The translations under genes were made by a program, and so were the position numbers. The notes beneath the pieces are model-generated. The model ran no database searches. It saw only the letters and a list, made by a program, of their open reading frames with translations, and was not told where the DNA came from. Positions 9,793 through 29,498 of a stretch of 64,000 nucleotides of DNA are shown piece by piece. Numbering within the stretch: position 1 is the first letter of the stretch; each line of letters opens with the position of its first letter. The DNA is taken from contig CAVTEH010000003.1 in the NCBI GenBank assembly GCA_963733635.1, positions 352,574 through 416,573 on the forward strand. The letters are read 5' to 3'. This stretch comes from an uncultured Actinomycetota bacterium (GTDB lineage Bacteria > Actinomycetota > UBA4738 > HRBIN12).

Positions 9793-9821
9793 AGTTGGGC
9801 TCCTCGTCGCGACGATACCTG

Positions 9822-11925: not shown

Positions 11926-12210
11926 CGCACCGTACCAGCGACGAAAGGCGCGGCGCCGTTCTTGTCAGACGGCGAGGTCTGGGGCACCATATGCGGTACG
12001 AGAGGAAGGAGGTGGTCCGACTTGCATGAACAGCTCGAGACCCTCGAGGTGACTGGCTGCTAGCCGTCCCTCGCGGAGGGACCACCCTCCGCCCGTTTGC
12101 CGGGCGACCGGCAGAATCCCAACCAGTTCACCGACCTCACGTGTTCCGGCTGGTCTACCGGACGAAGCCTCGTCAGAGGCCGAAGTGCTCGTGAGGTGAA
12201 GCGCAAGTCG

Positions 12211-12241
12211 AACGGGCCGGGCCCACAGGGTCCGGCCCGTT
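12211..12241. other. GC-rich hairpin (AACGGGCCGG-N11-CCGGCCCGTT) in the divergent region upstream of the Mo-hydroxylase operon
   Basis: Perfect 10-bp inverted repeat read directly. No T-tract follows, so not a canonical terminator. Confidence 0.3.
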
Positions 12242-12285
12242 CGCCGTTCTCAGGAAGGCGTGGGTAAGCTCGGCGGGAGAGCGCT

Positions 12286-13141
12286 GTGCCCGAGGGAGCG
12301 ATGCCCGTGGACTACCTGGTGCCGACCGATGTGGCCGCCGCCCTCGAGATGCGGGGCGCGGGTGGTGTGGTGTTGGCCGGGGGCACCGACCTGTATCCGC
12401 AGCACGTGGGACGCCCCATGCCGGACCCGATAGTCGACATCGGTGCGCTCACGGAGCTGCACGGCATCGAGCGAGACCGACGATGCGTATCGGATCGGCG
12501 CGCTCACGCGCTGGTCGGATGTGGCGGCCGCGTCGATGCCGGGTTGTTTCGACGGCCTGCGGGCCGCGGCACTCCAGGTCGGTGGGGTCCAGGTCCAGAA
12601 CGCCGGCACGGTCGGTGGCAACCTGTGCAACGCCTCGCCGGCAGCCGACAGCATCCCCCCGCTGCTGACCCTGGATGCCTCGGTGGAGCTCAGGTCGGCG
12701 TCCGGCCGCCGGGTCCTGCCCCTCGAGGCCTTCCTCACCGGGTACCGGCAGACGGCGCTTGCGCCCGACGAGCTGTTGACCGCGGTGCTGATCCCTCGTG
12801 ACGCCGAGGACGCACGATCGGTGTTCGGAAAGCTCGGGCTCCGCCGCTATCTCGTGATCTCGGTCGTGATGGTGGCGGTCCTGGTCGCGGCCGACGCGGA
12901 CGGCCTCATCACCGACGCGCGGGTGGCGGTCGGTGCGTGCTCACCGGTGGCGCAGCGGCTGCGATCGCTGGAGTCGGCGCTCCTGGGCCGCTCGACGCAT
13001 GCGCTCGACCCCGCGACGATCGGCGGTCATCTCGATGCGCTGACCCCCATCGACGATGTCCGCGCCACGGCCGACTATCGGCGCCGGTCCGCGTCGATCC
13101 TGGTGAGCCGGGCGCTCGCGAGCTGTGGTGACGACCGATGA
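12286..13141 (+). CDS. Molybdenum hydroxylase FAD-binding medium subunit (CoxM/XdhB-like), frameshift about 12475
   Basis: N-terminal ORF VVLAGGTDLYPQ then second frame YRIGALTRWSDV...GTVGGNLCNASPAADSIPPLL. The two frames overlap at ELHGIER/TDDAYRIG. Confidence 0.75.
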
Positions 13142-13630
13142 GCACGGTCACCTTCACGGTGAACGGATCGTCCACCCAGGTGGACCGATCGGCGCGGCGG
13201 CTCAGCGACGTGCTCCGCGACCACCTGGCGCTCACCGCCACCAAGGTGGGATGCGACGCGGGCGACTGTGGAGCATGCACGGTGCTCCTGGACGGCGAAC
13301 CGGTGACCGCGTGCATGACGTCGGTCGGGCGCCTCGAAGGTCGGCAGGTGGAAACCCTCGAGGGCCTCCACGAAAGCGGAGAGGCCACGCCGTTGCAGGG
13401 CGCCTTCCTCGCGCACGGCGCCGCGCAGTGCGGCATCTGCACGCCCGGCATGCTGGTGTCGGCGGCGGCGCTCCTGCGAGCCACATCCACGCCCACCGAG
13501 CAGCAGGTCATGGACGCCCTCGGGGGCGTGCTGTGCCGCTGCACCGGCTACCGCAAGATCGTCGCCGCGGTCATGGCCGCGCAAGTGGGCGCCACGGAGC
13601 ACCGCGCCGTCGCCGCCGCCGGTCGGCAAG
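13138..13630 (+). CDS. Molybdenum hydroxylase [2Fe-2S] small subunit (CoxS/XdhC-type ferredoxin subunit)
   Basis: GCDAGDCGACTVLLDG and AQCGICTPGM...LCRCTGYRKIV motifs. The ORF runs on out of frame (Arg-rich tail), so the stop is likely lost by an indel. The large subunit begins at 13634 in another frame. Confidence 0.8.
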
Positions 13631-13633
13631 GCG

Positions 13634-15884
13634 GTGGGTCACCGCGCCCAGCGGGTCGACGGCCAACCCAAGGTCAACGGCACCGACGTGTTCGGCGCCG
13701 ACGAGGCGCCCGAGGGAGCGCTCACGATCCGCATCGTCCGCTCTCCCCACCACCGGGCGAGCTTCCGGCTCGGCGACATCGACGCCTACGTCGCGGCGAC
13801 GCCCGGCGTCGAGGCGGTGCTGACCGCCGCCGACATCGATGGCAGCAACCGGTTCGGCGTGATCCCCGCCACGGCCGATCAGCCCGTGTTCGCCGAGGAA
13901 CACGTCCGTTTCCGGGGCGAAGCGGTGGCCATGATCGTGGGCGAACCCGCCCCGATGGCGGCGTTGGACCTTTCCACGTTCCCGGTGACGTGGCAGGAGT
14001 TGCCGCCGCTCATGTCCATCGATGAAGCACAAGCGCAGGACGCGCCCAGGATCCACGACGACGCGCGAGGGCAACATCCTCGTCCGTGGCAACGTGGCAC
14101 GCGGCGATCTCGACGACGCCTTCGCGGCGGCCCACCGTCGAGGTCGAGGGCGTGTTCGAGACCGGCTTCATCGAGCATGCCTACATCGAGCCGGAGGCCG
14201 GCTACGCCGAACGCATCGGCGACCGCGTCGAGGTGCAGGTGACGACGCAGTCCCCGCACATGGACCGGATCGAGCTGGAGCAGATCCTGGGACTGCCCGA
14301 AGGAGGCGTCCGCATCAAGCCGACCGCGGTCGGCGGCGGGTTCGGCAGCAAGCTCGACCTGTCGGTTCAGCCCTATCTGGCCATCGCCGCGTGGAAGCTC
14401 AACCGCCCCGTGCGCCTGACCTACACCCGCCCGGAGTCGATGATGTCGACCACCAAGCGGCATCCCTCCCGGTTGCGCGTACGCATCGGCGCGACCGGCG
14501 ACGGCAGGCTCACCGCCATGGACTTCACCGGCGAGTTCAACACCGGGGCGTACGCGTCGTGGGGGCCGACCGTGGCCAATCGCGTGCCGGTGCATGCGAG
14601 CGGGCCGTACGTCTACGACGCCTACCGCGCACGCACCGCCGCCGATCCACACGAACGGGCCGCCGTCGGGCGCGTTCCGAGGGTTCGGCGTGCCGCAGTC
14701 GACGATCGCGACGGAGGCGCTCTTCGACGAGCTCGCCGATGCGACCGACGTCGACCGGCTCGAGTTCCGCTACCGGAACGCGCTCACGGCGGGCGTGCCG
14801 ACGGTCACCGGGCAGGTGTTCGCCTCAGGCGTCGGGCTACCGCGAGTGTCTCGAGGCGCTCAGGCCGCACTGGGAGCGAGCCCGCGCCGACGCCGCCGCC
14901 GCGAACGATGAGGCCGGCACGACCCGCCGCGGCGTCGGCCTCGCCGGCATGTGGTACGGGTGCGGCAACACCGCCATGGCCAACCCGTCGACGATCAAGG
15001 TCGGGCCTCCGCCGCGACGGCCGCGTCGCGCTGTACCAGGGCGCGGTCGACATGGGCCAGGGCGCCAACACCGTCATGACGCAGATCTGCGCCGACGCGC
15101 TGGGCATCGACATGTCGCGCATCGTCGACGCTCGGCGCCGACACCGACACCACGCCCGACGCCGGCAAGAGTTCCGCGTCGCGCCAGACGTTCATCTCGG
15201 GCAACGCGACCTTCCTGGCCTCGACCGCCCTCCGCGAACGGCTGCTGCTGCTCGCGGGCGCCTCCGATGAGGCCCATCTGGAGCTCGACGACCACCACCT
15301 GGTCGTGCACGATCGCGGCGAGGCGACCAGGGTGGACCTTGCAGCATTGGACGCCGACGAGGACGACCTCGTCGTCCGTCACCAGCGCCACCTACGACCC
15401 GCCGACGACCGCCCTGGACGCCGACGGTCAGGGCGAGCCTTACGCACAGTTCGGCTACGGCGCGCACATGGCCGAGCTTCAGGTCGACATGGAGCTCGGC
15501 ACGGTGCAGCTCCGCCGGATCACGGCCGCGCACGACGTGGGACGCGCGGTGAACCCGACGCTCGTCGAGGGCCAGATCGAGGGCGGCGTCGCCCAGGGCA
15601 TCGGCATGGCGTTGATGGAGGAGTACGTCCCGGGCCGCAACGAGAACCTGCACGACTACCTGATCCCCACGATCGGCGACGTGCCCGAGGTCGTGAGCAT
15701 CCTGGTCGAATCCGGCGACCCGGCCGGTCCCTACGGCGCGAAGGGGATCGGTGAGCACTCGCTGATCCCCACCGCCCCGGCCATCCTGAACGCGATCCGT
15801 GACGCGGTGGGCGCCGGGGTGCGCCATCTGCCCGCCACGCCCGACCGCGTGCTCGCCGCGATCGAGCAAGGCCGTGCGCGATGA
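13634..15884 (+). CDS. Molybdenum hydroxylase large (MoCo-binding) subunit (CoxL/XdhA-like), at least 7 apparent frameshifts
   Basis: GTG start VGHRAQRVDGQPKVNG. Native segments alternate across all three frames, for example GNILVRGNVARGDLDDAFAAA, EVQVTTQSPHMDRIE...AVGGGFGSKL, GAFRGFGVPQSTIATE, MGQGANTVMTQICAD, GGVAQGIGMALMEEY...GAKGIGEHSLIPTAPAILNAIRDA. Confidence 0.8.
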
Positions 15885-17304
15885 CGCCGAGCGCGACCGA
15901 CACCGTCGTCTGCGACGCCTGCCCGATCCGCTGCGTGATCAAGCCCGGACGCACCGGCGCGTGCGACCGCTACGGCAACGTCGACGGGGTGCTCGCTCAG
16001 GCATGGACCCGCTGCTGGTGCTCGAGCGCACCCAGGAACAGGGCGGCGCGCTGGTGCCGTTCGCCTCGCGCGTGGGCGACTGGGACGGGCAGGTGGTGCC
16101 CACCGCCGAGATCGTCCTCACCGGGGCCGGGTCGGGCACGACCTATCCCGACTACAAGCCGGCACCGTTCATCGTCTCTTCCACGGTCGCCGGCGTGGAC
16201 ACCGTGACGGTCGTGACCGAGGCGATCTTCAGCTACTGCGGTGTGGACGTGAAGATCGACACCGACCGCCACGTGGGCGCCGAACGGCAGCTCGTGCGCG
16301 CCCGCGGCGAGGCGGTGGGCCACGTCACCACCGGCCAGTACGGGTCGCAGATGCTCTCGCTGGGCGGGGTGAACCACCTCACCGGCGGCTCCAAGCGCGA
16401 AGGCGTGGCGACCATGGAAACGCTCCTCGCGCTCTGCAGCGGCGAACCGGCCGAGCTCACGGTGGACGAGGGGTCGGAGCTGCTCCTGCAGGCGGGCCAG
16501 CCGCCGGTGATCAACGGCGTCGTCGAGGAACGGATGCGCGTGGGCTGCGGGTCCGCCACCATCGGCATGTTCGCGCAGCAGTGGTACGAGCATGTCGACG
16601 AGGTGGTGGTGGTCGACGATCACATCACCGGTGTGCTTTCCGAGCACCAGGCCGGCCGCTACCTCGACATCCCGCGGACCGGCATCAAGGTCAAGGGCCG
16701 CCGCTCGACGCCCGGGCGGTACTTCAACGTCGCCAACCCCGGTACCGGGCTGGGGCGGCACCGACATCGAGGACCCGCTCACGATCCTGGACGACTTCGA
16801 CCCGAAGGTGTCGCGGCCGGGGCTCTCGGTGCTCATGATCGGCACGACCGGCGAGCACCACGCGTACTTCGTGCTGGACGACGACCTACAGCCCGTGCCG
16901 GCCCCGCTTACCCGACGATCTGCGTCTGTCGGTCGAGCGCATCCGCGAGAACTGCGAGCCGGCGCATGACCTCGGTGCTGTTCATGGCCGGGGCAGGCGG
17001 TTCGCTGCGCGCCGGGGCGACGGAGAACCCGGTGGCGCTGACGCGCTCGGTGAACCAGATGCTCACCCGGGTCACCTGCGGCGGCGCGCCGGTCTACGTC
17101 TGGCCCGGCGGAGGCATCACCTTCATGGTGGACGTCACGCTCGTCCCACCCGGCGCGTTCGGCTACGTACCGACGCCCGCGTTGGTGGCGCCGCTGGAGT
17201 TCACGATGCCCCGCGACGACTACGCCGCGCTCGGCGGACACATGGACGCCATCGTCTCCGATGGACGAGGTGCTCGCACGCTCCGGACGTGCGGCACGCT
17301 ATGA
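15881..17304 (+). CDS. 6-hydroxynicotinate reductase (HnrA)-like Fe-S/flavo-protein, frameshifted (at least 3)
   Basis: Cys-rich N-terminus MTPSATDTVVCDACPIRCVIKPGRTGACDRYGNVDGVL. The body lies in the 15799 ORF frame (LTGAGSGTTYPDYKPAPFIVSS...GGSKREG...), with excursions into two other frames about 16745-16960. Overlaps the next gene start (ATGA). Confidence 0.5.
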
Positions 17305-18180
17305 GCGGCCCGGTGGCGGCGACGACGCCGGACGGGTCGCGCCTGCATCTGCATCACGGCCCGATCGACCTGATCATCGAGGCCTGGGGCGAGCCGGCCG
17401 ATGTCGCGGCCGCCTACCGCGTGGCGTGGGAACGGTTCCAGCCGCTGCTGGACGAGCTGGTCGCGGAGCTGCCGGCTCTGCGACGGCCGCTGGACCTTGC
17501 GGGCGGACCGGCAACTCGCGGTCCGGTCGCCCGACGCATGGCCGCGGCCGTGCGACCCTTCGCGGCCGACCGGTTCATCACGCCGATGGCCGCGGTGGCC
17601 GGGGCCGTCGCCGACGAGATCTGCGCGGCAGATGGTGACCTGCGGCGGTATCCCGCGCGCCTACGTCAACGACGGCGGCGACATCGCGCTGTACCTGACG
17701 CCGGGCGAGACGCTCGAGGTCGGGCCTGGTGCCCGTCCCCGACCGCCCCGCCCTGCTCGGCAAGGCCACGATCCACGCGGACGACGCCGTCCGAGGGGTC
17801 GCGACCAGCGGGCGGCACGGCCGGAGCTACTCGCTCGGCATCGCCGACGCGGTGACCGTGCTGGCCGACTCGGCCGCCCGCGCCGACGCCGCGGCCACGC
17901 TGATCGCCAACGCCGTCGACCTGCCCGGGATCACCCGGCGATCCGCCGGGTGCCCGCGCGCGACCTCGACCCCGACTCCGATCTCGGGGCGCGGCCGGTC
18001 ACGACCGAGGTCGGCGCGCTCACCGCGAACGAGGTCGCGCGACGCGCTCGAGCCTCGGGCGCTCGAGGAGGCCGAGCGGATGCGCGCCGACGGCCTGATC
18101 GCCGCCGCGCGGTGCTGTGCCTCGACGATCAGGTCGCGACGGTCGCGACCCCCGTGCTAGCGTCCGCCGTCGGGGGGTGA
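17289..18180 (+). CDS. UPF0280 family protein, frameshifted across 3 frames
   Basis: SRLHLHHGPIDLIIEAWGEPADVAAAYRVAWERF...FITPMAAVAGAVADEI, then MVTCGGIPRAYVNDGGDIALYLTPGETLEV, then VPVPDRPALLGKATIHADDAVRGVATSGRHGRSYSLGIADAVTVLADSAARADAAATLIANAV in separate frames. Confidence 0.5.
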
Positions 18181-18189
18181 GCGACGAGC

Positions 18190-18765
18190 GTGGACATCCG
18201 CAAGATCGTCACGACGGTCGAGGACGTGCGCAGCGAGGCCGGCCAGCCGGTCGACCCGCCCATCCGGCGCGTCGTCACGGCCGCCGTTCTGACCAACCCG
18301 TTCGCCGGCCGATACGTCGAGGACCTCACCGAGATGATCGACGACAGCGTCGAGCTCTCGGGCATGCTCTCGGCCATCGCGGTCGCCCAGCTCGACGGCC
18401 GCCCAGTCCACAGCTACGGCAAGGGCGGCATCGCTGGGACCAAGGGAGAGCTGGAGCACGTCGCTGCGTTCCTGCATCCCAAGTTCGGCAACCCGCTGCG
18501 CGACGCGTGCGGCGGCGGCAAGGCAATCATCCCGTCGGCCAAGAAGCGCGGCGGGCCGGGCGTCACCGCTCGACGTGCCGCTCCACTACAAGGACGCCGC
18601 GTTCGTGCGGAGCCACTTCGACGCGTCGAGCTCCGGATCGTGGACGCGCCCGACGACGACGAGCTGGTCGATCGCGGTGGCGGTGACCGACGGCGGCCGT
18701 CCGCTGCCTCGCGTCGGCGGCCTGCAAGTGTCGACGAGATCGTCGGCGAAGACGGCCTGCGGTGA
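18190..18765 (+). CDS. Amino-acid-synthesis family protein (PF06684-like), frameshifted
   Basis: MDIRKIVTTVEDVRSEAG...LTNPFAGRYVEDL...GKGGIAGTKGELEHVAAFLHPKFGNPLRDACGGGKAIIP, then LHYKDAAFVRSHFDA and IAVAVTDGGRPLPRVGGLQV in other frames. Confidence 0.55.
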   Translation: MDIRKIVTTVEDVRSEAGQPVDPPIRRVVTAAVLTNPFAGRYVEDLTEMIDDSVELSGMLSAIAVAQLDGRPVHSYGKGGIAGTKGELEHVAAFLHPKFGNPLRDACGGGKAIIPSAKKRGGPGVTARRAAPLQGRRVRAEPLRRVELRIVDAPDDDELVDRGGGDRRRPSAASRRRPASVDEIVGEDGLR

Positions 18766-18772
18766 CGTCCCG

Positions 18773-19990
18773 GTGAGCGACGGGCGCCGACCTGGTCATC
18801 CGCAACATCGGCACGATCGTCACCGGTGACGTCGAGGCGCCCATCGCCGAGGGCGACACCGATCGTCGTGCGCGACGGCGTGATCGCGTCCGTCGGCGAC
18901 ATCGGCGAGCGTCGACCCATCGGACATCCCGGCCGTGATCGACGCGGCGCGGCGCAACCGTGACGCCCGGCCTTTGCGACGACCACGTGCACCCGGTGCT
19001 GGGCGACTTCACGCCGCGCCAGTCGCAGCTCGGGTTCATCGATTCCTACCTGCACGGCGGCACGACGACGATGCTCTCTGCGGGCGAGCCGCACACGCCC
19101 GGCCGCCCCACCGACCCCGCCGGCGTGAAGGCTCTGGCGATCCTTGCCCACGCGTCGTTCGCGAAGCTCCGTCCGTCGGGCGTCAAGGTGCACGCGGGCG
19201 CCGTGCTCTGCTGGAACCCGGTCTCACCGAGGCCGACTTCGAAGAGATGGCCGCCGCGGGCGTCGAGCTGGTCGGCGAGATAGGTATCTCCGGCGTCAAG
19301 GACCCCGACGTCGCCGCCGAGATGACGCGCTGGGCCCAGGCCCGCGGCATGCGCGTCATGGTGCACACGGGCGGCGCCTCCATCCCCGGCAGCGGCATCG
19401 TCGGGGCGGACTTCGTCGTGGTGGTGCAGCCGGACGTGGCGGGCCACGTCAACGGAGGCCCCACCGCGCTGCCGCTGGATCACGTGGAGCGGATCCTCGA
19501 CGAGACGCACGGCGCGGGTCGAGATCGTGCACAACGGCAACGTCAAGGCCGCCGGCGAGGTCGCGGCGCTCGTGTCCCACCGCTGCGAGCTCCACCGCCT
19601 GGTCGATCGGCACCGACAGCCCCGCGGGCAGCGGCGCGCAGCCACTCGGCATGCTGCGAGCGATCTCGTGGGTGGCGGCCCTCGGCGGCGTCGACCCGGC
19701 CGCGGCGATCGCCGCCGCCACCGGCAACGTGGCCGCCGTGCATGGACTCGAACACCGGCGTCGTCGCCGCGGGCCGCGAGGCCGACCTGCTCGTCATGGA
19801 CGCGCCGCTCGGCTCCCAGGCCGACGACGCGCTCGGCGCCCTCGCGATCGGCGACACACCAGCGGTGGTGACGGCCATCATCGACGGCGATGCCTCGCTT
19901 CACGAAGAGCCGCAATACCCCGCCGCCGGTGCGACCGGTGTCGTTCTCGAGTTAGTCGCCGCTGCTGGTTTCCGCGTTGGCGAGTCATGA
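18773..19990 (+). CDS. Enamidase-like amidohydrolase (1,4,5,6-tetrahydro-6-oxonicotinate amidohydrolase family), frameshifted (at least 4)
   Basis: DLVIRNIGTIVTGDVEAPIAEGDT / IVVRDGVIASVGDIGE / TPGLCDDHVHPVLGDFTPRQSQLGFIDSYLHGGTTTMLSAGEPHTPGRPTDPAGVKALAI / MVHTGGASIPGSGIV...HVNGGPTAL / ATGNVAAVHGLNTGVVAAGREADLLVMDAPLGS...IIDGDASL spread over three frames. The GTG start is restored if the GGG run at 18780 is shortened by one. Confidence 0.6.
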
Positions 19991-19992
19991 CC

Positions 19993-20268
19993 TCACGGAG
20001 CTGGCGATCGCCCGTCCTTCATCGTGACGACGACCGCTCGATCTTCCTCGTCGAGGTAGACGTACACGAGGATCATCGACCGCCAAGGCCCGAGCAGGAA
20101 CCGGTAGCCCGCCCACCGTCCGTCGAGCTCGGGACCGAGGCGAGGGAATCGGGTGAGCGGTGCCAGCGAGCGAGCGACCCGTTCCCGCGTATCGGCGGGA
20201 AGGCTGTGCGAGGCGATGAGTCGTTCGAGATCCTCGACGGCGGTCGAGCTCACCTCGACAGAGGTCAC
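19993..20268 (-). CDS. RelE/ParE-family type II toxin
   Basis: 91 aa; WAGYRFLLGPWRSMILVYVYLDEEDRAVVVTMKDGRS fits the ParE/RelE C-terminal pattern. Confidence 0.5.
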   Translation of the reverse strand: MTSVEVSSTAVEDLERLIASHSLPADTRERVARSLAPLTRFPRLGPELDGRWAGYRFLLGPWRSMILVYVYLDEEDRAVVVTMKDGRSPAP

Positions 20269-20284
20269 GGGCTAGAGGTCATCG

Positions 20285-20380
20285 AGCGAGACGGTCCGGC
20301 CCGCCCGGGCATCGTCGACCCCTTCAGCCGCTCGCTCGAGCGCACCCGGGATGCCATCGAGGAGTTCCATTGAGCGCCAG
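20285..20380 (-). pseudogene. Short (32-aa) putative antitoxin remnant upstream of the ParE-like gene
   Basis: Own translation MELLDGIPGALERAAEGVDDARAGRTVSLDDL, bounded by an in-frame stop immediately upstream. Too short for an intact ParD or Phd. Confidence 0.2.
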
Positions 20381-20388
20381 CCCAGGAC

Positions 20389-20706
20389 TCAGGTGCGGAT
20401 CCCGAGTGCGAAGCGGAGCGCTCGATCGAGGCGGGGGAGCTCATCGGTCGACAGGTGGCCGAGCGGTCGCCGACGCATGGCTTCCTTGGGGATCGTCTGC
20501 AGCGAGTCGCAGTTGGCGACCGATCGCTTCCGCAATCCGTTGGCGCGCCCCAGAGCAACCTCGCTGGCGATGTGACGGATGGTGCGGGTCACGGGCGCCA
20601 CGGTGACGGCCGTTCGCACCGCGATCGCGGAGGTGCGCGTGACCAGCAGTACCGGTCGCCGTCCGGCCGGCTCGGGTAGATCGGCAAGGTAGATCTCGCC
20701 GCGACG
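20389..20706 (-). CDS. mazF: MazF/PemK-family toxin (type II TA), start codon unclear
   Basis: Own translation LRRGEIYLADLPEPAGRRPVLLVTRTSAIAVRTAVTVAPVTRTIRHIASEVALG...CDSLQTIPKE...LRFALGI. No ATG or GTG lies directly after the antitoxin stop. Confidence 0.6.
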   Translation of the reverse strand, partial: RRGEIYLADLPEPAGRRPVLLVTRTSAIAVRTAVTVAPVTRTIRHIASEVALGRANGLRKRSVANCDSLQTIPKEAMRRRPLGHLSTDELPRLDRALRFALGIRT

Positions 20707-20712
20707 CAGTGT

Positions 20713-20994
20713 TCAGCCTTCCGGCCACGCGGTGGCGCCGAGGGCTCGAAGCGCCGCGAATTCCTCGAGGTCCTCGGGCACCCGCGAATACGCCTGGGCA
20801 TAGCGCACGTCGGCGGCCGACTCCGAGATCGCTTCCACGTACAGGTCGACGGCGCGGCGGATCAGCTCGCTCCGGTTGTCATCGGCCGCGCTGGCGAGCC
20901 GATCGAGCGCGGCGACCTGCGCATCGTCCAGCTGCACCAGGACCTGTTTCCGTGCCATCTCGGGCATCATGCCATATGAAATAGCATATGGCAC
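20713..20994 (-). CDS. Ribbon-helix-helix (CopG/MazE-like) antitoxin
   Basis: MARKQVLVQLDDAQVAALDRLASAADDNRSELIRRAVDLYVE; stop abuts the MazF-like gene. Confidence 0.65.
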   Translation of the reverse strand: MPYAISYGMMPEMARKQVLVQLDDAQVAALDRLASAADDNRSELIRRAVDLYVEAISESAADVRYAQAYSRVPEDLEEFAALRALGATAWPEG

Positions 20995-21015
20995 CGCAAG
21001 GAAACGTGACGCCGG

Positions 21016-21612
21016 TCACTTCCGAAGGAGCGTGACCCCTGCGGCAGCCATCTGTGCGAGCGCGCGCTCGCCGTCGCCCGCCTGCAGGTCGACCGCGCGC
21101 ACGGCATCGCCGATCAGGTGGACCGAGAACCCTTCGGCGAGGGCATCCAAGGCGGTCGCGAGCACGCAGTAGTCGGTGGCGAGCCCGGTGATCATCAGCG
21201 TCGTGATGCCGGCGTCGCGCAGGATCGCGGCGAGCTCCGTGGGCTCGGTCGCCTCGGTGGTGGGGTGTCGGGTCGTGAACCCCGAGTAGCCGTCCTGGCC
21301 GTCGACACCCTTGCGCACGACCGGTCCGTCCACCACCAGATCGGGGTGGAACTCGGCGCCCCATGTCTCGCCCACGCAGTGCACCGGCCAGATGCCCCCG
21401 TCCTTGGCGAAGTGCGGCGTGTCCGGAGGGTGCCAATCCTGCGTGTACACGACGAGCGCGCCCTGCCCCCGCGCCTCCGCGATCTCGGAGTTGACGAGCG
21501 GCACGACGGCATCGCCCCCGCTCACGGAGAGGCTGCCGTCCGGGTCGGCGAAATCGTTCTGCACGTCGACCACGATGAGCGCGGTCTGCGCGTCGTAGGA
21601 GATGCTGTCCAT
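21016..21612 (-). CDS. pncA: Nicotinamidase/pyrazinamidase (isochorismatase family)
   Basis: MDSISYDAQTALIVVDVQNDFADPDGSLSVSGG...ALVVYTQDWHPPDTPHFA...ITGLATDYCVLATALDALAEGFSV. The ORF-track upstream extension looks out of context. Confidence 0.8.
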   Translation of the reverse strand: MDSISYDAQTALIVVDVQNDFADPDGSLSVSGGDAVVPLVNSEIAEARGQGALVVYTQDWHPPDTPHFAKDGGIWPVHCVGETWGAEFHPDLVVDGPVVRKGVDGQDGYSGFTTRHPTTEATEPTELAAILRDAGITTLMITGLATDYCVLATALDALAEGFSVHLIGDAVRAVDLQAGDGERALAQMAAAGVTLLRK

Positions 21613-21652
21613 GACCGTCCGATGATAGCCACCACCGCCCAAGGGAGGAACT

Positions 21653-22038
21653 ATGGACGTCGCACGAGCGATCGACGGCACGTTCGAACAGGGGGACGAG
21701 GGTCGGTTCACCGGCGAGGTGTGGCTGCGCTCGGCCCTCGGCGACGAGGCCGGCACAACGATCGGGATCGTGCACTTCTCACCCGACGCCCGCACCCGGT
21801 GGCATCGGCACGCCACGGGCCAGTTCTTGTACGCGATCACGGCCGCGGTCGAGTGCGCACGCGCGGCGAGGTCGGCCACCTGCTGGAACCCGGCGACGTG
21901 ATCCACGTGGCCCCCGACGAGTGGCACTTCCACGGGGGATCGCGCACGGCACCGATGGTGCACGTGGCGGTGACCGGTGGCGCGGTGGAATGGGGCGAAC
22001 CCGTCACCGAAGAAGAGTTCGACGAGGGGTTCGAGTAG
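21653..22038 (+). CDS. Cupin-domain protein, apparent 1-nt deletion near 21849
   Basis: VWLRSALGDEAGTTIGIVHFSPDARTRWHRHATGQFLYAI then, in the second frame, GRGRVRTRGEVGHLLEPGDVIHVAPDEWHFHGG...EEEFDEGFE. A GGG to GG change would explain it. Confidence 0.55.
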
Positions 22039-22290: not shown

Positions 22291-23043
22291 CTAGGCGCTC
22301 TTCGTGGACGGCCCGCCCAGGTAGGCCTGGATCACAGCCGGGTCCTCCGCGATCCGACGCGGCGGCCCGACCGCGATCGTGCGCCCCTGGTCCAGGACCT
22401 GGATGCGGTCGCAGAGCTTCATGATGAGCCGAAGGTCGTGGTCGACGATGACGACGGCGCATCCGAGCGACGACCCTGATCCTGCGGATGTTCGCGAGCA
22501 GCTCGTCGGACTCCGATCTCGTTCATGCCGGCGGCGGGCTCGTCGAGCAGGATCAGCTTCGGACGGCGCACCACCGCTCGCGCGATCTCGAGCCGTCGCT
22601 GCATGCCGTAGGGCAGGTTCACGGCCTTCTCCCGCTGGACCATGCCGTGAGGCTGAACCACTCGAGCACCTCGTCGACCGAGGCCTCGTCCGCTGCCGGA
22701 CAGGGCTCGCGGCCTCGACGTTCTCGCGGACCGTAAGCTGGGCGAACAGCCGGATGTTCTGGAAGGTGCGCGAGAGGCCGAGCGCCGCGATCCGGTGGGG
22801 CTTGAGCCCGGCGATCTCGCCGCCCTTCGAAGCGCACCGTCCCCTCGGTCGGCGGGTAGACGCCCGAGATCACGTTCAGCAAGCGTGGTCTTGCCCGAGC
22901 CGTTCGGGCCGATCAGCCCCAGGATCTCGTCCTGGCGAACCTCGATGTCGACGCCGTCGAGCGCGGCGACACCCTCGAAACGCTTCGCGACCCTATCGCC
23001 CACCAGTACACGGGTGCCGCGGGGTCGCAACGGACGCGGCACC
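22291..23043 (-). CDS. livG: Branched-chain amino acid ABC transporter ATP-binding protein (LivG-like), frameshifted
   Basis: RFEGVAALDGVDIEVRQDEILGLIGPNGSGKTTLLNVISGVYPPTEGTVRFEG, LSGGQ-region, IILLDEPAAGMN, and C-terminus VIQAYLGG*, across frames. Confidence 0.65.
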
Positions 23044-24150
23044 ATCGTCGGGCCGATCGATCGACGCCGGCGGGAGACCAGTGCTCTCGAGCCGACCCGC
23101 CCGCCGGGCCGCCCGTGCCTCGGCGAGCCGCAGGCGTGAGCCGCCGCAGCAGGTCGTCGATCTCCCAACGATCGAAGATGCCCTCGGGTCGCACGATCAG
23201 CGTGACGATGATGAGCAACGCGATCACGAACTGCACCGTGCCGGTGATCTTGGGCAGCTCCCACGGGCCGATCGCGACGCCCTGCTCGACCCGCGCGAGG
23301 GTGTCGGTCAGGAACGTGACGATCGCCGCACCCGCCACCGCGCCGGTGAGCGACGTGCGCCCGCCGATCACCAGCATCGCGAGCAGGGCGAACGTGATCG
23401 CGAAGTAGAACTGGTTCGCGTTGAACGCGATCACGCTCTGGGCCCATAGCGATCCGGCTGCGCCCATCATCGCGGCGCTCAGCAGCCACACGCCGTAACG
23501 GGTCCTCACGACGTTCGTGCCGACCGACGCCGCCGAGAGCGGGTCCTCTCGCGTGGCGCGCAGGCGCAGGCCGGATCCGGACTCCTTGTAGAGGCGGCCG
23601 AGCACCACGAACGCCACCGCGGCGATCGCCGCCACGGTCAACGTCGTGCGCACCGGGACGCCGGCCAGGCCCAGGGATCCGCGGGTGTACGTCGTGGCGT
23701 TCTGGAAGAAGGTGTGCACGACGACGAGCAGCGCGAGCGTGGCCATCGCCATCGTCGACTCGGTCATGCGGATGATCGCCCCGCCGAAGACGGCGGCGAC
23801 GATCAACGCCACCACGGCGGACAGGACGACGGCGACCGGGAGGCCGAGGTCGGTGTTCGCGAGCACGGTCGGCAGCTCCGGGAACTGCGCCGCCTTCACG
23901 GTGCTCGGGATCGTCACCAGCGCCGTCGCGTACGCGCCGATCCCCATGAAAGCGACGTGGCCGAACGAGACGATGCCGCTGTTGCCGATGAACGTCTGGA
24001 GCGAGACGACCAAGCATCACGTTCACGAGGAACACGACGTAGGTGCGGCTCGAGGACGACGAGCCGAACGCCTGCACGAGCAGCATGCCGCCCGCGAGCA
24101 GCGCGCCGATCACGGCGCATCCCCACAGCGCCGGTCGCAGTCGGCCCGCG
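23040..24150 (-). CDS. livM: Branched-chain amino acid ABC transporter permease (LivM-like), frameshift near N-terminus
   Basis: VVSLQTFIGNSGIVSFGHVAFMGIGAYATALVT...NANQFYFAITFALLAMLVIGGRTSLTGAVAGAAIV...IVRPEGIF; N-terminal helix in another frame. Confidence 0.65.
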
Positions 24151-24160
24151 GGGATCACGA

Positions 24161-25054
24161 TCACACAGCCTCTGCCCGCTGGCCGAACAGCCCCTGCGGT
24201 CGGACGTACAGGACCGCGACGACGATCAGCAGCGAGGCCGCCTGCGCGTAGGGCAGGAGCGAGCCCGGCAGCAGGGCCTGCAGGAACACCTCGAGCGTTC
24301 CGAGGAAGAAGCCGCCGATCACCGCTCCTCGCAGGTTGCCGAGCCCGCCGATCACCGACGCGATGAACGCCTGGATCACCGGGACGAAGCCGGTCGTGGG
24401 GTTCGACCGAGGTGGTGCGTACGATCCACAAGCACGCCGGCGATGCCGGCGAGCAGTCCCGAGATCAGGAACGCGAGCGAGATCACGCGGTTCGCGCGCA
24501 CGCCCATCAGTCGAGCGGTCGTGAAGTCCGCCGAGGCGGCGCGCATCGCGAGGCCCGACCGCGACCGGCGCATGAACGTCGTGAGCGCCACCAACGAGAT
24601 CGCGCCGATCCCCGCGGTGATGATGCTCAGCACGCTGATCCGCACCGGTCCCGAGCTGGATCGCCTCGTCGAAGAAAGCCGGCACCGGGATGCCGCGCGA
24701 GCGGACCGACACGGCCTGGCGGAACGCCCCTTGGATCAACTGCGCCACCGCGAATGAGGTGAAGAGCAGCGAGACGAAGCTCGCGTCGCGCAGCGGCCGG
24801 AACGCCACGAGCTCCATCAGGACCGACGAGATCCCCGCCGCCGCGACGCCGACCAGCGCGACGACGATGAACGGCGCGCCCGCGTACGTCGCGGCCAGCA
24901 TCGAGTACCCGGTGATCGTGACGAGCTCGCCGTAGGCGAAGTTCAGCATGCCGAGCACGCCATAGACCATCGACAGCCCGAGCGCGAGCAGGGCATAGAT
25001 GCTGCCCAGCGACAGCGCGTTCACGAGCTGCTGCACGAACTCCGACGGGCTCAC
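24161..25054 (-). CDS. livH: Branched-chain amino acid ABC transporter permease (LivH-like), internal compensating frameshifts
   Basis: MSPSEFVQQLVNALSLGSIYALLALGLSMVYGVLGMLNFAYGE...native C-terminus IQAFIASVIGGLGNLRGAVIGGFFLG; the middle about 70 aa is out of frame. Confidence 0.7.
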   Translation of the reverse strand: MSPSEFVQQLVNALSLGSIYALLALGLSMVYGVLGMLNFAYGELVTITGYSMLAATYAGAPFIVVALVGVAAAGISSVLMELVAFRPLRDASFVSLLFTSFAVAQLIQGAFRQAVSVRSRGIPVPAFFDEAIQLGTGADQRAEHHHRGDRRDLVGGAHDVHAPVAVGPRDARRLGGLHDRSTDGRAREPRDLARVPDLGTARRHRRRACGSYAPPRSNPTTGFVPVIQAFIASVIGGLGNLRGAVIGGFFLGTLEVFLQALLPGSLLPYAQAASLLIVVAVLYVRPQGLFGQRAEAV

Positions 25055-25061
25055 GCCATCC

Positions 25062-25835
25062 TCACCCCGCCTGGCTGATCCCCAGGTAGGAGCGCTCCAG
25101 CTCGCCCTCCACCAGCTGGTCGGTCGGGCCGGACGCGACGACGGCGCCGACAGACAGCACGTAGGCGCGATCGGCGATCTCCAGCGCGCGGTGTACGTTC
25201 TGCTCGACGAGCAACACGGTGACGCCCTCGTCGCGGAGCTCCTGGATCAACTCGAAGATCCGATCGACGAAGATCGGCGCGAGGCCGAGCGACGGTTCGT
25301 CGAGCAGGAGCATGCGTGGCCGCGACATCAACCCGCGTGCGATGGCCAGCTGCTGCTGCTCCCCGCCCGAGAGCGTCCCCGCCGTCTGCGCCGCACGCTC
25401 CCCCAGGATCGGGAAGCGCGCGAGCCAGCGGTCGGCGTCGGCGCGGAGCTCGTCGCGATCGCGGCGCACGATGCCCCCGATCGTGAGGTTCTCCTCGACG
25501 GTGAGATCGGCGAACACGTGCCGCCCCTCCGGGACCAGCGCGACGCCACGACGCACCACCGCCTCGGGCGTGAGCCCCGTCAGCGTCGCGCCGTCGAAGG
25601 TCGCGCGGCCGTGCTGAGGCTTGTGAGCGCCGGCGAGCGTGCGCAGCAACGTCGTCTTGCCCGCGCCGTTCGGGCCGAGGGCGGCGACGATCTCCCCGGG
25701 AGCGACCGTGAGCGAGACGTCGCGGATCGCGACGACCGCCCCATAGGCGACCGTCAGGCCGTCGACGGCGAGCAGCGGAGGGGCGGCCTCGGCGGTCGCG
25801 GTGGCCGGCCCCTCCTCGCTCGATCCCTCGGACAC
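25062..25835 (-). CDS. livF: Branched-chain amino acid ABC transporter ATP-binding protein (LivF-like)
   Basis: LLAVDGLTVAYGAVVAIRDVSLTVAPGEIVAALGPNGAGKTTLLRT...LSGGEQQQLAIARGLMSRPRMLLLDEPSLGLAP; GTG start with a short N-terminal extension. Confidence 0.8.
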   Translation of the reverse strand: MSEGSSEEGPATATAEAAPPLLAVDGLTVAYGAVVAIRDVSLTVAPGEIVAALGPNGAGKTTLLRTLAGAHKPQHGRATFDGATLTGLTPEAVVRRGVALVPEGRHVFADLTVEENLTIGGIVRRDRDELRADADRWLARFPILGERAAQTAGTLSGGEQQQLAIARGLMSRPRMLLLDEPSLGLAPIFVDRIFELIQELRDEGVTVLLVEQNVHRALEIADRAYVLSVGAVVASGPTDQLVEGELERSYLGISQAG

Positions 25836-25837
25836 GC

Positions 25838-27068
25838 TCAGATCGCCGGGACGTAGTCCGGGAAGTCCGGCTGGCCGAGGCAGGTGAACTCGGTACCGTC
25901 CATCTGGATGAGGGCCGCGGGCTTGTTCGCGCGTCGGGTCTCCGGATCCATCACGAGGTGGCCCGAGATGCCCGTGGCGTCCAGGCTCGCGAGCTGCTCC
26001 GTGATCGCGGCCGGCTCGGTGCTCCCCGCGGCCTCGATCGCGTCGGCCACGATGTTGACCTCGTCGAAGCCGATCACCGCGACGTAGGAGCTCGGGTCCT
26101 CGCCGTTGGCCTCCGAGTAGTTGTCGTAGAACGCCTGCACGGCGGGGTCGCCCTCGGCGGTGCACACCGAGTTCGAGAACGTCAGCCCGTCGATCGCCTT
26201 CTGCCCTGCGTCGAGCAGCGCTGCGTCGGCGTTCCCGTCGGTGGACAGGACCGGCGTCGTGACCCCGGCCTGGCGAAGCTGACGCAGGAACACGACGCTG
26301 TCGGGGATGTACATCGGCGTGAAGATCGCGTCCGGCGCAGGGTCGACGTTCGCGATCTTCGTGACCGCGGCCGAGTAGTCGCCCGCCCCCAGCTTGTACT
26401 GGTCCGTGCCCACGACGGTGCCCCCGCCGTTCTCGAACGCGTCGCTGAAGAACTTCGGCAGGTCGCGGGTGTAGGGGATCTCGTTCGAGCCAAGGACGTA
26501 GGCGGTCTGGTAGCCCTCGCGCCAGCGCGTGCTCGGCGAGCACGGCCGCCTGGATGTTGTCGCTCATCACGAGCTGGTAGGCGCACTCGCCCATGTCGCC
26601 GACGAGCGTGGGCGCGGTGCCGAGCCCGGTCGAGATCGGTGTCCCCACGGCGCAGGCCACCTGGCCCTCGGCCAGGATGGCGTCGCCCACCGTGCCGATC
26701 AGGTAGACCGCGCCATCGTCGATCAGCTGCTGGGTCACCTTCGCGGCCTCGGCGACGTCGTTGCGCATGTCGACCGTCTGCAGCTCCAGCGGCCGGCCGA
26801 GCACACCGCCGGCCTCGTTGATCTGGTCCACGGCGAACTGCGCGCCCTCCTGCATCGGAACGTCGTAGAAAGCCCAGTCGGTCGACAGGTCGGCCGGGAA
26901 GCCGATCACGATGGGCTCACCCGACGCGGAGCCCCCGTCGGACCCGGTGGCGTCGCCACCACCGCCTTCGTCCGTGCTACACGCGGCACCCACCAGGGTC
27001 AACACGAATGCGAGTGCGATCGATCTCCTGAGCATCCCCTCAGCCCTCCCCAAGACGGTATCGGGCAT
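25838..27068 (-). CDS. Liv-type periplasmic substrate-binding lipoprotein (LivJ/LivK family), frameshift about 26430-26520
   Basis: Signal peptide plus lipobox LVGAACS. EPIVIGFPADLSTDWAFYDVPMQEGAQFAVDQINEAGGVLGRPLEL. C-terminal half in the 25838-26413 frame. Confidence 0.75.
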
Positions 27069-27179: not shown

Positions 27180-28092
27180 GAGACGCACACGCACACGAGC
27201 GAGACGATCGGCGAGGAGATCCGCGAACGGCTGAATGAGATGACGCCCGCCGAGCGCCGGGTCGCACGCACACTCCTCGAGACCTATCCCACCGCGGGCC
27301 TCGAGAGCCTGCCGCAGCTCGCCGAGGGCGCCGGCGTCACCGGACCCACGGTGCTGCGATTCGTCCGCAAGATCGGCTTCGACGGCTACCCCGACTTCCA
27401 ACGTTCGCTCCGCCAGGAGGTGCAGGCGCGCACCGAGGGCCTCCCGTCGCTCTACCGGACCCGCGGCGGCACGCAGGACGACGACATCCTGCGTCGGAGC
27501 CACCAGGCGTTCACTTCGGCGCTCGATGCGACGCTGACGTCGGGCTCGCTCGAGCACGACCTCGCCGAGGTCGTGCGACTCGCTCGTCGACCCGAAGCGG
27601 CGGGTCTGGTTCGTCGGCGGGCGGTTCAGCCAGCTCGCGGCGTCCTACCTCTGCCTGCAGCTGCGTTTCCTGCGGTCCGGGTGCGCCGTCGTGGCGGACG
27701 AGCCGGAGGGTCGCCGCCTCGATGGGTTCGATATCTCGCGCCGGGACGTCCTGTGCCTGTTCGACTACCGGCGATACCAGCGGGACACGATCGCGGTGGG
27801 CCGGCGCGCGGCGGAGCGCGGCGCCGTCGTGGTCGTCTTCACCGATCCGTGGCTCTCGCCGGCCATCGAGCAGGCCCGGCACGTGCTGATCTCCCATGCG
27901 GACTCGGCCTCCCCGTTCGACTCCCTGCTCGGCGCCTTCGCCCTCACCGAGGTGATCGCCGCCGAGGTCGTCGTCGCGCTCGGCGAGACCGGGCGGGCGC
28001 GCGTCGCCGAGCTCGATGCCGCAGCCGACGGTCTGCATGAGCCCCTCGCCTCGCTTCGAGAGGTCGATCCGAAGGGTGCCGAGGCCGGATGA
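27180..28092 (+). CDS. MurR/RpiR-family transcriptional regulator (HTH_6 + SIS), one frameshift about 27600-27690
   Basis: MTPAERRVARTLLETYPTAGLESLPQLAEGAGVTGPTVLRFVRKIGFDGYPDF, then SIS-domain half in the 27691 frame. The start is probably a non-ATG codon upstream of 27240. Confidence 0.65.
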
Positions 28093-29462
28093 GCGCGACC
28101 GGCCCGCGACCGGCGGGCGCCGCCGCCGTGCAGGCTTGGCTCGAAGAGGCCGGGGTGCGCACGGTCACCCTGGGCTTCGTCGACTCCGCGTCGATCGTGC
28201 GTGCGAAGTCGGTGCCCATCCGCCGGTTCGAGGCGGCGGCCACGCACGGCATCGGCCTGTCGACGCTGTTCAACGCCGCGATGTCCAACGACGAGTTCGC
28301 GCTGTCGCCCGGTTACATCGACGGCCCCAGCGGCGACATCCGGCTCCGCGCGGACGCCGCGGCCACGGTGCCGCTCGCCGCCTCGCCCGGCTGGGCCTGG
28401 GCCCCGGTCGACCAGTACACGCAGGAGGGCGAGCCGTTCGCCCCGTGTCCGCGACGCTTCACGCGGCGCATGGGAGCCGCGATCGAGGAGCGCGGCCTCT
28501 CGGTGCGCGCGGCCTTCGAGTTCGAGTGCTCGATCGGGGTGCGGCGCGACGACGGGGAGTTCCAGCCCGCTCACGAAGGCCCGGGCTACAGCGACATCGC
28601 GCTCGTCCGCAACCACGACTTCGCCCTCGAGTTGATCGAGGCTGCCGAGGAGCAGGGCCTGGACCTGCAGCAGTTCCACCCGGAATACGCTGAGGGCCAG
28701 TTCGAGCTCTCGATCGGTCCGCGCGATCCGCTCGCCGCCGCCGATGCCGCGATGATCGTGCGCCAGGTCGTGCGGGCGGTCGCGCGCCGCCACGGGCTCG
28801 TGGTCTCGTTCGCGCCGCAGGTTGAGGCGGGGACCGGCAACGGCACCCATCTGCACATCAGCCTGTGGGAAGGCGAGACGAACCTGCACGCGGGCGGTGA
28901 CGGCGCCGCGGGCATGCACCCGCAGGGGGAGGCCTTCACCGCGGGCCTGCTGGACGAGCTCCCGGCGATCGTCGGCGTCACGGTGCCGACCGCGCTCGGC
29001 TACATCCGGCTGCAGCCGCACCACTGGTCTGGCGCGATGCGGTGCTGGGGTGTCGACAACCGTGAGGCCGCCCTGCGGTTCGTCGCGGGCACGGCCCACG
29101 GGACGGAGGACGGCGCGAACGTCGAGGTGAAGCCCGTCGACGGCACCGCGAACCCCTACCTCGCGGTCGGCGCGGTGCTCGCCGCGGGCCTGCACGGCCT
29201 CGACCAGGGGGGCCGCCTTCCGCCTTCGACCGAGGAGGATCCCGAGCGCCTTCCCGAGGACGTGAAGGCCGAGCGCGGCATCTCCCAGCTCCCCGGCTCG
29301 CTACCCGAGGCCGCTGAGCGCCTCGCCGGCTCCGCCGTGCTGCGCGAGGCGATGGGGGAGTTCCTGTTCGAGTCGTTCGTCGCGACCCGGCGGGGTGAAT
29401 CCGAGCAGTACGAGGGGCTGGACGAGGACGAGCTGATCCGCCGCCTGCGCTGGCGGTACTGA
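28089..29462 (+). CDS. Glutamine-synthetase-family ligase (GS catalytic domain; gamma-glutamyl-amine synthetase-like)
   Basis: Intact 457 aa; GS catalytic-domain pattern ...FDSASIVRAKSV...EFECSIG...NGTHLHISLW... Confidence 0.85.
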   Translation: MSATGPRPAGAAAVQAWLEEAGVRTVTLGFVDSASIVRAKSVPIRRFEAAATHGIGLSTLFNAAMSNDEFALSPGYIDGPSGDIRLRADAAATVPLAASPGWAWAPVDQYTQEGEPFAPCPRRFTRRMGAAIEERGLSVRAAFEFECSIGVRRDDGEFQPAHEGPGYSDIALVRNHDFALELIEAAEEQGLDLQQFHPEYAEGQFELSIGPRDPLAAADAAMIVRQVVRAVARRHGLVVSFAPQVEAGTGNGTHLHISLWEGETNLHAGGDGAAGMHPQGEAFTAGLLDELPAIVGVTVPTALGYIRLQPHHWSGAMRCWGVDNREAALRFVAGTAHGTEDGANVEVKPVDGTANPYLAVGAVLAAGLHGLDQGGRLPPSTEEDPERLPEDVKAERGISQLPGSLPEAAERLAGSAVLREAMGEFLFESFVATRRGESEQYEGLDEDELIRRLRWRY

Positions 29463-29498
29463 GCTGGGGCCGCGGCCCCGGAGAGGAAACCGACCACC

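Follow-up and report, generated by a model that had tools for sequence, protein, structure and literature searches.

A plus-strand operon of six genes lies between 12.3 and 20 kb of a 64,000-nucleotide stretch (the window) of contig CAVTEH010000003.1 from an uncultured Actinomycetota bacterium. It encodes a molybdenum (Mo) hydroxylase of two subunits, a homolog of 6-hydroxynicotinate reductase (Hnr), a UPF0280 protein, a protein of family PF06684 (AA_synth) and an enamidase (Ena) homolog, and is followed by a nicotinamidase-like gene, pncA. We consider it likely that this block, UPF0280 and PF06684 included, represents the upper module of the reductive nicotinate pathway via 1,4,5,6-tetrahydro-6-oxonicotinate (THON) in uncultured Actinomycetes, and that the many frameshifts in it are long-read consensus errors. 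In the proposed route PncA would deamidate nicotinamide to nicotinate, a nearby Liv-type ATP-binding cassette (ABC) transporter would import the substrate, and the two-gene Mo hydroxylase, a homolog of the NdhFSLM enzyme of Eubacterium barkeri, would convert nicotinate to 6-hydroxynicotinate. Hnr, an Fe–S flavoenzyme, would turn this into THON, from which enamidase would produce 2-formylglutarate and ammonia. The PF06684 protein would act somewhere between nicotinate and 2-formylglutarate. Later steps would be encoded outside the window and presumably follow the glutarate route as in Azorhizobium.

The gene models had to be reconstructed. At the G+C content of the window (about 69%) raw lists of open reading frames (ORFs) are uninformative, and the coding phase was followed by third-position GC. 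Long unbroken coding phases extend over most of the window, and at 12.3–20 kb the phase switches every few hundred bases. Positions 12201–21700 were translated in the three plus-strand frames with stops masked and then scanned against Pfam, which gave matches to FAD_binding_5/CO_deh_flav_C, Fer2/Fer2_2, Ald_Xan_dh_C/MoCoBD_1/MoCoBD_2 and AA_synth; the Hnr-like, UPF0280 and amidohydrolase genes were recognised via homologs. When the longest Hnr piece that stays in frame was used to search for homologs, a locus on a 1.68-Mb metagenome contig (L001) was reached, which served as template. Its operon has the same six genes, five as intact gene calls and hnr with one private +1 insertion near the 5' end that shortens the call. 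The products are a flavin adenine dinucleotide (FAD) subunit of 266 aa, a fused 2Fe-2S/Mo subunit of 913 aa, an Hnr-like protein called at 426 aa, AbpE_bact/UPF0280 (316 aa), AA_synth (193 aa) and Amidohydro_1 (387 aa). The coordinates in Table 1 were set with this locus as guide. All seven domains or parts named in an initial annotation of the window were recovered on the plus strand in the order given there, from Pfam, homologs and intact relatives. The limits chosen in that annotation, 12286 and 21612, are the first GTG of the FAD-subunit ORF and, on the minus strand, the position at which pncA starts. The separate coxS-like and coxL-like genes that it listed are one polypeptide with fused 2Fe-2S and Mo parts, as in the single 913-aa ORF of L001 and of two further loci (L006 and L007), so that the hydroxylase is a two-gene and not a three-gene enzyme.

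A search with the sequence of Protein Data Bank (PDB) entry 2VUN, the enamidase of E. barkeri, led to an E. barkeri-type locus with 97% identical Ena (L004) and to a locus of Acetobacterium bakii (L005). When the comparison with E. barkeri proteins that had been proposed at the outset is made, every corrected product of the window pairs with a counterpart in L004. The L001 amidohydrolase matches 2VUN over its full length (residues 3–382) with E = 6e-131, the next PDB family following at 1e-6, and after frame correction the protein of the window shares 53% identity with the L004 enamidase; no NCBIfam equivalog reached its cut-off for Ena. The corrected window Hnr has 45% identity to the L004 protein over 379 aa, and homologs at about 70% identity, among proteobacteria at 65–74%, bear the NCBI/RefSeq name 6-hydroxynicotinate reductase. 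The earlier descriptions of an Hnr-like Cys-rich protein and an enamidase-like amidohydrolase can thus be sharpened to orthologs of the two E. barkeri-type enzymes, and neither protein scored better to unrelated subfamilies.

An N-terminal CxxCxxxC...C motif is found in the window Hnr and in 80 of 82 homologs, and all residues that are invariant in the family are retained in the aligned window protein. The Hnr of L004 carries in addition N-terminal Fer4 domains according to Pfam. This N-terminal 2x[4Fe-4S] ferredoxin domain of E. barkeri-type Hnr is missing in the window, in L001 and in all proteobacterial homologs that were aligned, and because of its absence the electron donor of the window Hnr probably differs from that of the anaerobe. 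As a separate observation, hnr is often frameshifted in deposited assemblies. Seven public Hnr gene calls from independent assemblies (P0016, P0042, P0049, P0059, P0075, P0093 and P0115) have out-of-frame C-terminal tails, and a 6-hydroxynicotinate reductase named as such by NCBI is among the frameshifted cases.

The Mo hydroxylase has the complete domain set of the nicotinate dehydrogenase type (FAD, 2x 2Fe-2S and molybdenum cofactor) with the FeS and Mo parts fused. Its FAD subunit is 36% identical to the NdhF of L004, and the NdhS, NdhL and NdhM parts of the fused subunit are 46%, 39% and 42% identical to their counterparts. By summed bits, the closest solved structure is the E. barkeri nicotinate dehydrogenase (3HRD), of which chains A, B and D together score about 612 bits vs 404 for the next, 1SIJ. 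Tyr13 of subunit M, which was modelled as a contact to the ring nitrogen of nicotinate (PMC5746545), is conserved in the window Mo subunit within the sequence MWYG. An aerobic-type three-subunit hydroxylase, as initially described, therefore does not fit: the Mo enzyme itself is nearest to the nicotinate dehydrogenase of E. barkeri. In Bradyrhizobium loci (L014–L023 and others) Hnr, UPF0280 and AA_synth are kept but are paired with a different Mo hydroxylase, about 25% identical and on the opposite strand, with ena 6–8 kb off. Since the same Hnr trio occurs with a different Mo hydroxylase, the hydroxylase component appears to be exchangeable and the trio fixed.

Several points weigh against the assignment to the nicotinate pathway. 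Homology and synteny were observed, and the enzyme activities in this lineage are extrapolated from the characterised E. barkeri enzymes. The Mo enzyme reached no NCBIfam equivalog cut-off, and at 36–46% identity to E. barkeri Ndh its substrate would follow from the context. Hnr is covered by neither Pfam nor NCBIfam models and has no structural relative, and its predicted structure was too poor for a fold assignment. The E. barkeri lower-pathway set (Hgd, Hmd, B12-dependent 2-methyleneglutarate mutase, Mii, DmdAB and Dml) is not in the window. When ten L004 proteins from outside the upper module (the LysR regulator, the PTS_EIIC_2 transporter and eight lower-pathway proteins) were compared with the whole window by tblastn, no match at E <= 1e-5 was obtained.

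An alternative reading is a functional module that acts on another N-heterocycle, for example a substituted pyridine-carboxylate, instead of nicotinate. The Mo hydroxylase, PncA and the cupin encoded next to it all score below NCBIfam equivalog cut-offs, the specificity of a Mo hydroxylase cannot be read from identities of 36–46%, and the module is plastic in that some related clusters have a hydantoinase/oxoprolinase pair in place of enamidase. Yet Hnr and Ena are full-length orthologs of characterised nicotinate-pathway enzymes, the nicotinate-contacting tyrosine is conserved, a nicotinamidase-type PncA is linked to the cluster in two actinomycete genomes, and mineralisation of both nicotinate and 6-hydroxynicotinate is described for a bacterium with the homologous cluster of proteobacteria (PMC3511419). 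A substrate other than nicotinate is accordingly considered improbable.

The cluster type to which the block is assigned is already known. In L004 the gene order is LysR, Hnr (499 aa, Fer4), AbpE_bact, Hgd, NdhF, NdhS, NdhL, NdhM, transporter, Ena, AA_synth, B12 mutase, PrpF, MutL, Dml, Hmd, DmdAB; the gene set of L005 agrees with this, except that a chemoreceptor gene is inserted and a gene for a phosphotransferase (PTS)-type transporter is absent. The window has in common with this E. barkeri-type cluster (the one of Alhapel et al. 2006) the upper set of Ndh, Hnr, UPF0280 beside hnr, Ena and PF06684 beside ena, at 32–53% identity, together with Tyr13(M) and the Cys motif of Hnr. It differs in having two Ndh genes (FAD and one fused FeS-Mo chain) where the E. 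barkeri type has four, an Hnr that lacks the ferredoxin domain, a Liv-type ABC transporter in place of PTS_EIIC_2, and linked PncA and cupin genes, and in having none of Hgd, the B12-dependent mutase and the other lower-pathway genes. The host is a high-GC and presumably aerobic actinomycete, in contrast to the fermentation of E. barkeri.

The THON route was found first in E. barkeri and also runs in the aerobic Azorhizobium caulinodans (PMC3511419); the same summary of the route in both organisms is given in PMC9304392. A homolog 42% identical to E. barkeri Hnr belongs to a cluster common to A. caulinodans (AZC_2790-2804), Bradyrhizobium japonicum (blr3818-3830), R. palustris and strain SG-6C (PMC3511419). 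The window resembles this aerobic alphaproteobacterial cluster, which likewise unites the first three steps, a branched-chain amino acid (BCAA)-type ABC transporter as well as a pair of conserved proteins without assigned function in one locus (PMC3511419), and the alphaproteobacterial Hnr proteins are also devoid of the ferredoxin domain. The core order of FAD subunit, fused Mo subunit, Hnr, UPF0280 and AA_synth is identical on a plasmid of Fuscovulum ytuae (NZ_CP124537, RefSeq), where an ABC transporter is present too. The window is set apart by its phylum, by ena directly after AA_synth in the operon where Bradyrhizobium has ena at a distance and on the other strand, by the attached PncA and cupin genes, and by a Mo hydroxylase different from that of Bradyrhizobium. 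The proposal of a new hybrid route, made when the block was first annotated, is therefore not upheld: an aerobic THON cluster has been described (PMC3511419), and since UPF0280 and AA_synth are present in both L004 and L005 they are original parts of the cluster and not additions. The novelty is confined to its occurrence, together with pncA, in uncultured Actinomycetes.

Conservation of the block was examined by scanning the Hnr alignment over one genome per species, which gave relatives in at least 593 species genomes; neighbourhoods were counted for the best 80 of these loci. UPF0280 directly follows hnr in 72 of the 80 and AA_synth is near hnr in 73. An Ena gene lies within 10 kb in 52, the same pair of FAD and fused FeS-Mo genes is upstream in 40, and a PncA-like gene is near in 16. 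The two nearest loci (81–82% identity) are in metagenome-assembled genomes (MAGs) from a long-read soil project that are named 'uncultured Actinomycetes bacterium', which agrees with the actinobacterial context suggested at first; the rest of the top 80 are from Alphaproteobacteria, with many Bradyrhizobium, from Acidobacteriota and from a few Gammaproteobacteria. In the actinomycete MAG L006 all six operon genes are intact, and L007 has one frameshift. Many more UPF0280 homologs with 70–77% identity come from Actinomycetota MAGs. The quartet of Hnr, UPF0280, AA_synth and Ena is thus conserved as a unit in L004, L005 and the 80-locus survey, and the five-component core is kept across three phyla. 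A side observation concerns the 28 of the 80 loci that have no Ena within 10 kb. On the F. ytuae plasmid (L086, 19860–23251) the cluster ends with a hydantoinase/oxoprolinase A+B pair and no enamidase is in reach; this pair may provide an alternative, ATP-dependent opening of the THON lactam ring.

The recurrent pairing of hnr and UPF0280 raises the question of what UPF0280 contributes. The corrected window protein is 32% identical to its L004 counterpart, and the L001 ortholog scores 396.8 bits against NF003322 (cut-off 290). Its AlphaFold2 (AF2) model has a predicted local distance difference test score (pLDDT) of 86.8, and a Foldseek search with this model gave 2O34, a UPF0280 structure, and at ranks 3–41 exclusively FMN transferases of the FmnB/ApbE/Ftp type with a probability of about 1.0, followed by noise. 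By predicted fold UPF0280 therefore belongs to the ApbE superfamily, which is also the label that JGI uses for the family. The template modelling (TM) scores against ApbE, Ftp and FmnB are only 0.27–0.46. In the 2006 work of Alhapel, E. barkeri Hnr is reported to carry a flavin that is bound covalently, in addition to one [2Fe-2S] and two [4Fe-4S] clusters. A role in flavin maturation would explain the strict adjacency of hnr and UPF0280.

Other results argue against a role as flavin transferase. The UPF0280 score for PF02424 is 19.4 bits, below the gathering cut-off of 25.6. A sequence profile of the family retrieved 2O34 alone from the PDB and no ApbE, so that the ApbE link came from the fold comparison. 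The canonical ApbE target motif is D-x-x-[S/T]-G-A-[S/T] (PMC12052999). It is missing in all 82 Hnr homologs and in every cluster protein of the window, L001 and L004, and none of the 82 Hnr homologs has the loose form [ST]GA[ST] either. Flavinylation of Hnr by the canonical ApbE route was rejected because the motif is missing. In comparison with ApbE, Ftp and FmnB the fold is common, but TM-scores are low, inspection of the sequences revealed neither a signal peptide nor a lipobox at the N-terminus of UPF0280, and the presumed target has no motif. In view of the motif absence, the sub-threshold PF02424 score and the lack of ApbE in the PDB profile search, any flavin role has to be non-canonical and remains inferential; on the basis of the modelled fold and gene adjacency we suggest that UPF0280 most likely matures or loads the Hnr flavin in such a way.

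The PF06684 protein of the window is 53% identical to that of L004, and the AA_synth protein of the cluster matches PDB entry 2QTP (SPO0826) with E = 2.7e-67. The family name 'amino acid synthesis' stems from a structural-genomics paper, and its only basis was that BCAA-type ABC transporter genes lie next to the gene (PMC2954203). Because the ABC genes that adjoin PF06684 in nicotinate clusters encode a putative nicotinate transporter, the name is probably misleading and an annotation artefact; the ABC genes beside SPO0826 most likely belong to a nicotinate-cluster transporter as well. A more specific joint proposal would be that UPF0280 is a cytoplasmic factor dedicated to Hnr, either a flavin transferase or a maturation factor of non-canonical type whose target need not have the D-x-x-[S/T]-G-A-[S/T] motif, and that PF06684 is an obligatory enzyme or subunit of the Hnr and enamidase steps, but this is put forward only tentatively, with the odds somewhat against it. 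In one related locus (L003, 6376–10445) an insertion of about 3.6 kb with a DZR/Guanylate_cyc/AAA_16 regulator, of the signal transduction ATPases with numerous domains (STAND) type, separates UPF0280 from AA_synth. The regulator is fused to AA_synth by a frameshift in the gene call, and similar cyclase-STAND genes occur in the window at 1781–4417 and 7837–9999.

The frameshifts that had been noticed in the block are real in the sequence, as single Pfam domains run from one frame into another. FAD_binding_5 is matched at profile positions 3–63 in one frame and 59–169 in the next, before CO_deh_flav_C, with a private +1 insertion near 12471–12477. The Fer2, Fer2_2, Ald_Xan_dh_C, MoCoBD_1 and MoCoBD_2 domains of the fused subunit are scattered over three frames; MoCoBD_1 is matched at positions 27–196 and then 200–244 in another frame, and MoCoBD_2 extends over three. 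AA_synth is matched at 1–159 in one frame and 105–175 in another. An out-of-frame ORF of the window agrees in every residue with P0001, a public gene call of 433 aa on an NCBI/ENA contig of 527 kb, and the frameshifts are therefore present in the deposited genome.

Private indels were counted in a six-genome alignment of the 7.6-kb operon (window, L001, L002, L003, L006 and L007). The window has at least 27 that shift the frame, namely 22 of +1, four of +2 and one of −1, so that 26 are insertions; the relatives have 9 (L003), 8 (L002), 3 (L006), 2 (L007) and 1 (L001). No window indel is common to any of the five relatives, which rules out inherited frameshifts. Homopolymer-type errors, as in 454, Ion and early nanopore reads, do not fit, as an identical base adjoins only 5 of the 22 single-base insertions. 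After the frames had been corrected with L001 codons, no stops were found in about 2440 codons. The ratio of nonsynonymous to synonymous substitution rates (dN/dS) was 0.10–0.31 against relatives, the same as among the relatives themselves. Private substitutions were distributed over the codon positions as 21:16:63 and 20:14:66, like those of relatives, and were as numerous as in the sister lineage (179 vs 179). Under gradual neutral decay one would expect deletions, stop codons and substitutions spread evenly over the codon positions, and none of these was observed. Old or gradual pseudogenisation was rejected on these grounds and on dN/dS. Assembly error is likely because the corrected genes have no stops, normal dN/dS and third-position-biased private substitutions. 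The dense frameshifts would then most likely be consensus errors of an insertion-prone long-read metagenome, and the organism itself probably has intact copies of the genes.

The distribution of the frameshifts is a point on which this explanation is less comfortable. Outside the nicotinate island, which also includes the cupin and transporter genes with shifts of this type in the cupin and three transporter genes, +1 frameshifts were found near 27,560 in the RpiR gene (HTH_6 and SIS in different frames) and near 35,440 in a membrane adenylate cyclase gene (34748–36157, +), where the Guanylate_cyc domain continues in another frame; flanking genes gave clean full-length domain matches. The density is about 1 per 220–280 bp over the island and about 1 per 5 kb elsewhere, a difference of about 20-fold, and a 1.6-kb stretch inside the island with the toxin–antitoxin (TA) pairs and pncA is free of frameshifts. 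Both observations count against an artifact. They would suit a nicotinate cluster that is truly decayed, in which pncA, being under selection, and the self-maintaining TA genes stayed intact: every group of ancestral island genes (operon, cupin and ABC transporter) is frameshifted, the TA pairs and pncA are not, the density is far above the rest of the window, and a frameshifted ORF is present in the public record. However, bacterial pseudogene decay is deletion-biased, and 26 of the 27 private indels are insertions. The corrected codons contain no nonsense codon, dN/dS is not raised, the private substitutions are third-position-biased and no more numerous than in the sister lineage, and the family-invariant Hnr residues are all kept. 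Related metagenome contigs and unrelated genes of the window contain similar private +1 insertions too, but more sparsely. At least 27 indels in the absence of accompanying neutral substitutions would require that real mutations, insertions only, had arisen in a very recent burst, for which no mechanism is known. Real decay is thus unlikely, and such a burst is given an equally low probability. If consensus errors are the cause, as we prefer, the hot-spot over the island could arise where DNA is shared with co-occurring relatives and the supporting reads are few or come from a mixed population. L002 and L003, about 82% identical, belong to metagenome assemblies whose ENA accessions are neighbours, and L001 and L002 share one sample.

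Table 1. Genes of the nicotinate island and adjoining features in the window (positions in the 64,000-nucleotide stretch).
Feature	Position	Strand	Remarks
FAD subunit (ndhF-like) of Mo hydroxylase	12301..13141	+	alternative GTG start 12286; likely ATG 12301
Fused 2Fe-2S + molybdopterin subunit (NdhS + NdhL + NdhM equivalent)	13138..15884	+	~910 aa corrected; ~9 frame changes
hnr, 6-hydroxynicotinate reductase homolog	15881..~17305	+	~470 aa corrected
UPF0280 / AbpE_bact	17301..~18180	+	frameshifted; 3' end approximate
AA_synth (PF06684)	18190..18765	+	frameshifted
ena, enamidase (THON amidohydrolase)	~18780..19955	+	~8 frame changes; start approximate
Small antitoxin (20370-20272) + RelE/ParE-like toxin (20268-19993)	19993..20370	-	intact
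Ribbon-helix-helix (RHH; CopG) antitoxin (20958-20713) + PemK/MazF toxin (20709-20389)	20389..20958	-	intact
pncA-like nicotinamidase	21016..21612	-	intact
Cupin_2 protein	21653..~22035	+	one frameshift near 21830
Liv-type ABC transporter, five genes	22291..27035	-	Pfam domains
Liv substrate-binding protein	27035-25838	-	
Liv ATPase	to 25062	-	
Liv permease	25054-24161	-	
Liv second permease	to ~23138	-	
Liv second ATPase	~23009-22291	-	
RpiR-family regulator	27240..28092	+	divergent from transporter; HTH_6 + SIS

Downstream of the operon, pncA was correctly placed on the other strand in the initial annotation, but the cupin gene, placed there as well, is on the plus strand just past the end of the block described. 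The two TA pairs between ena and pncA and the frameshifted Liv-type transporter in the same island had been overlooked. PncA has an Isochorismatase domain (1.8e-31), and its best NCBIfam model is nicotinamidase/pyrazinamidase NF008623 with 144.9 bits (cut-off 174), the next family scoring 52 bits. The cupin was delineated by tblastn with the cupin of L003, which matches residues 1–62 in frame 2 and 55–118 in frame 1; the query scored against NCBIfam, where it remained below the equivalog cut-off, was the L003 ortholog except for its first 16 residues, which were from the window. A cupin gene is directly 3' of ena in L003 and L006, and in L007 ena is followed by pncA and cupin genes, the former convergent and 62% identical. 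Because L006 and L007 carry the cupin after ena, and L007 also pncA, both genes were ancestrally present in this lineage, which leaves the two TA pairs as the only window-specific genes here; DNA homologous to the TA insert was not found between ena and cupin/pncA in L003, L006 and L007. The RHH_1 (2e-07) and PemK_toxin (1.1e-13) matches to Pfam are both in one frame. The other antitoxin (32 aa) and the RelE/ParE-like toxin are also single-frame genes and were assigned to families by inspection, an NCBIfam scan giving no match.

The transporter, a putative nicotinate importer, is frameshifted in the substrate-binding protein, one permease and one ATPase: Peripla_BP_6 is matched at positions 1–127 and 127–339 in different frames, BPD_transp_2 extends over two frames, and the frames of ABC_tran and BCA_ABC_TP_C differ. 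The divergently encoded RpiR-family protein is a possible regulator of the island. Next to it, 28089–34718 (+) holds intact glutamine-synthetase-like, Amidohydro_2 and, by inspection, GcvT-like genes, which look like a separate amine or gamma-glutamyl catabolic unit.

For annotation in general, the island illustrates that dense local frameshifts of the insertion type in a long-read MAG can mimic pseudogenisation, and that selection tests separate the two without reads. For the biology of these organisms, the THON-type nicotinate cluster, so far known in Firmicutes and Alphaproteobacteria, is now seen in uncultured Actinomycetes of soil as well, with a nicotinamidase gene linked to it, a modest gain for our view of vitamin B3 cycling in soil. 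Across phyla, Hnr and Ena have UPF0280 and PF06684 as near-obligate partners, which gives both of these families a concrete and testable functional context. If the roles proposed for them hold, the textbook upper nicotinate pathway of three enzymes would become a five-component system, conserved from Firmicutes to Actinomycetota.

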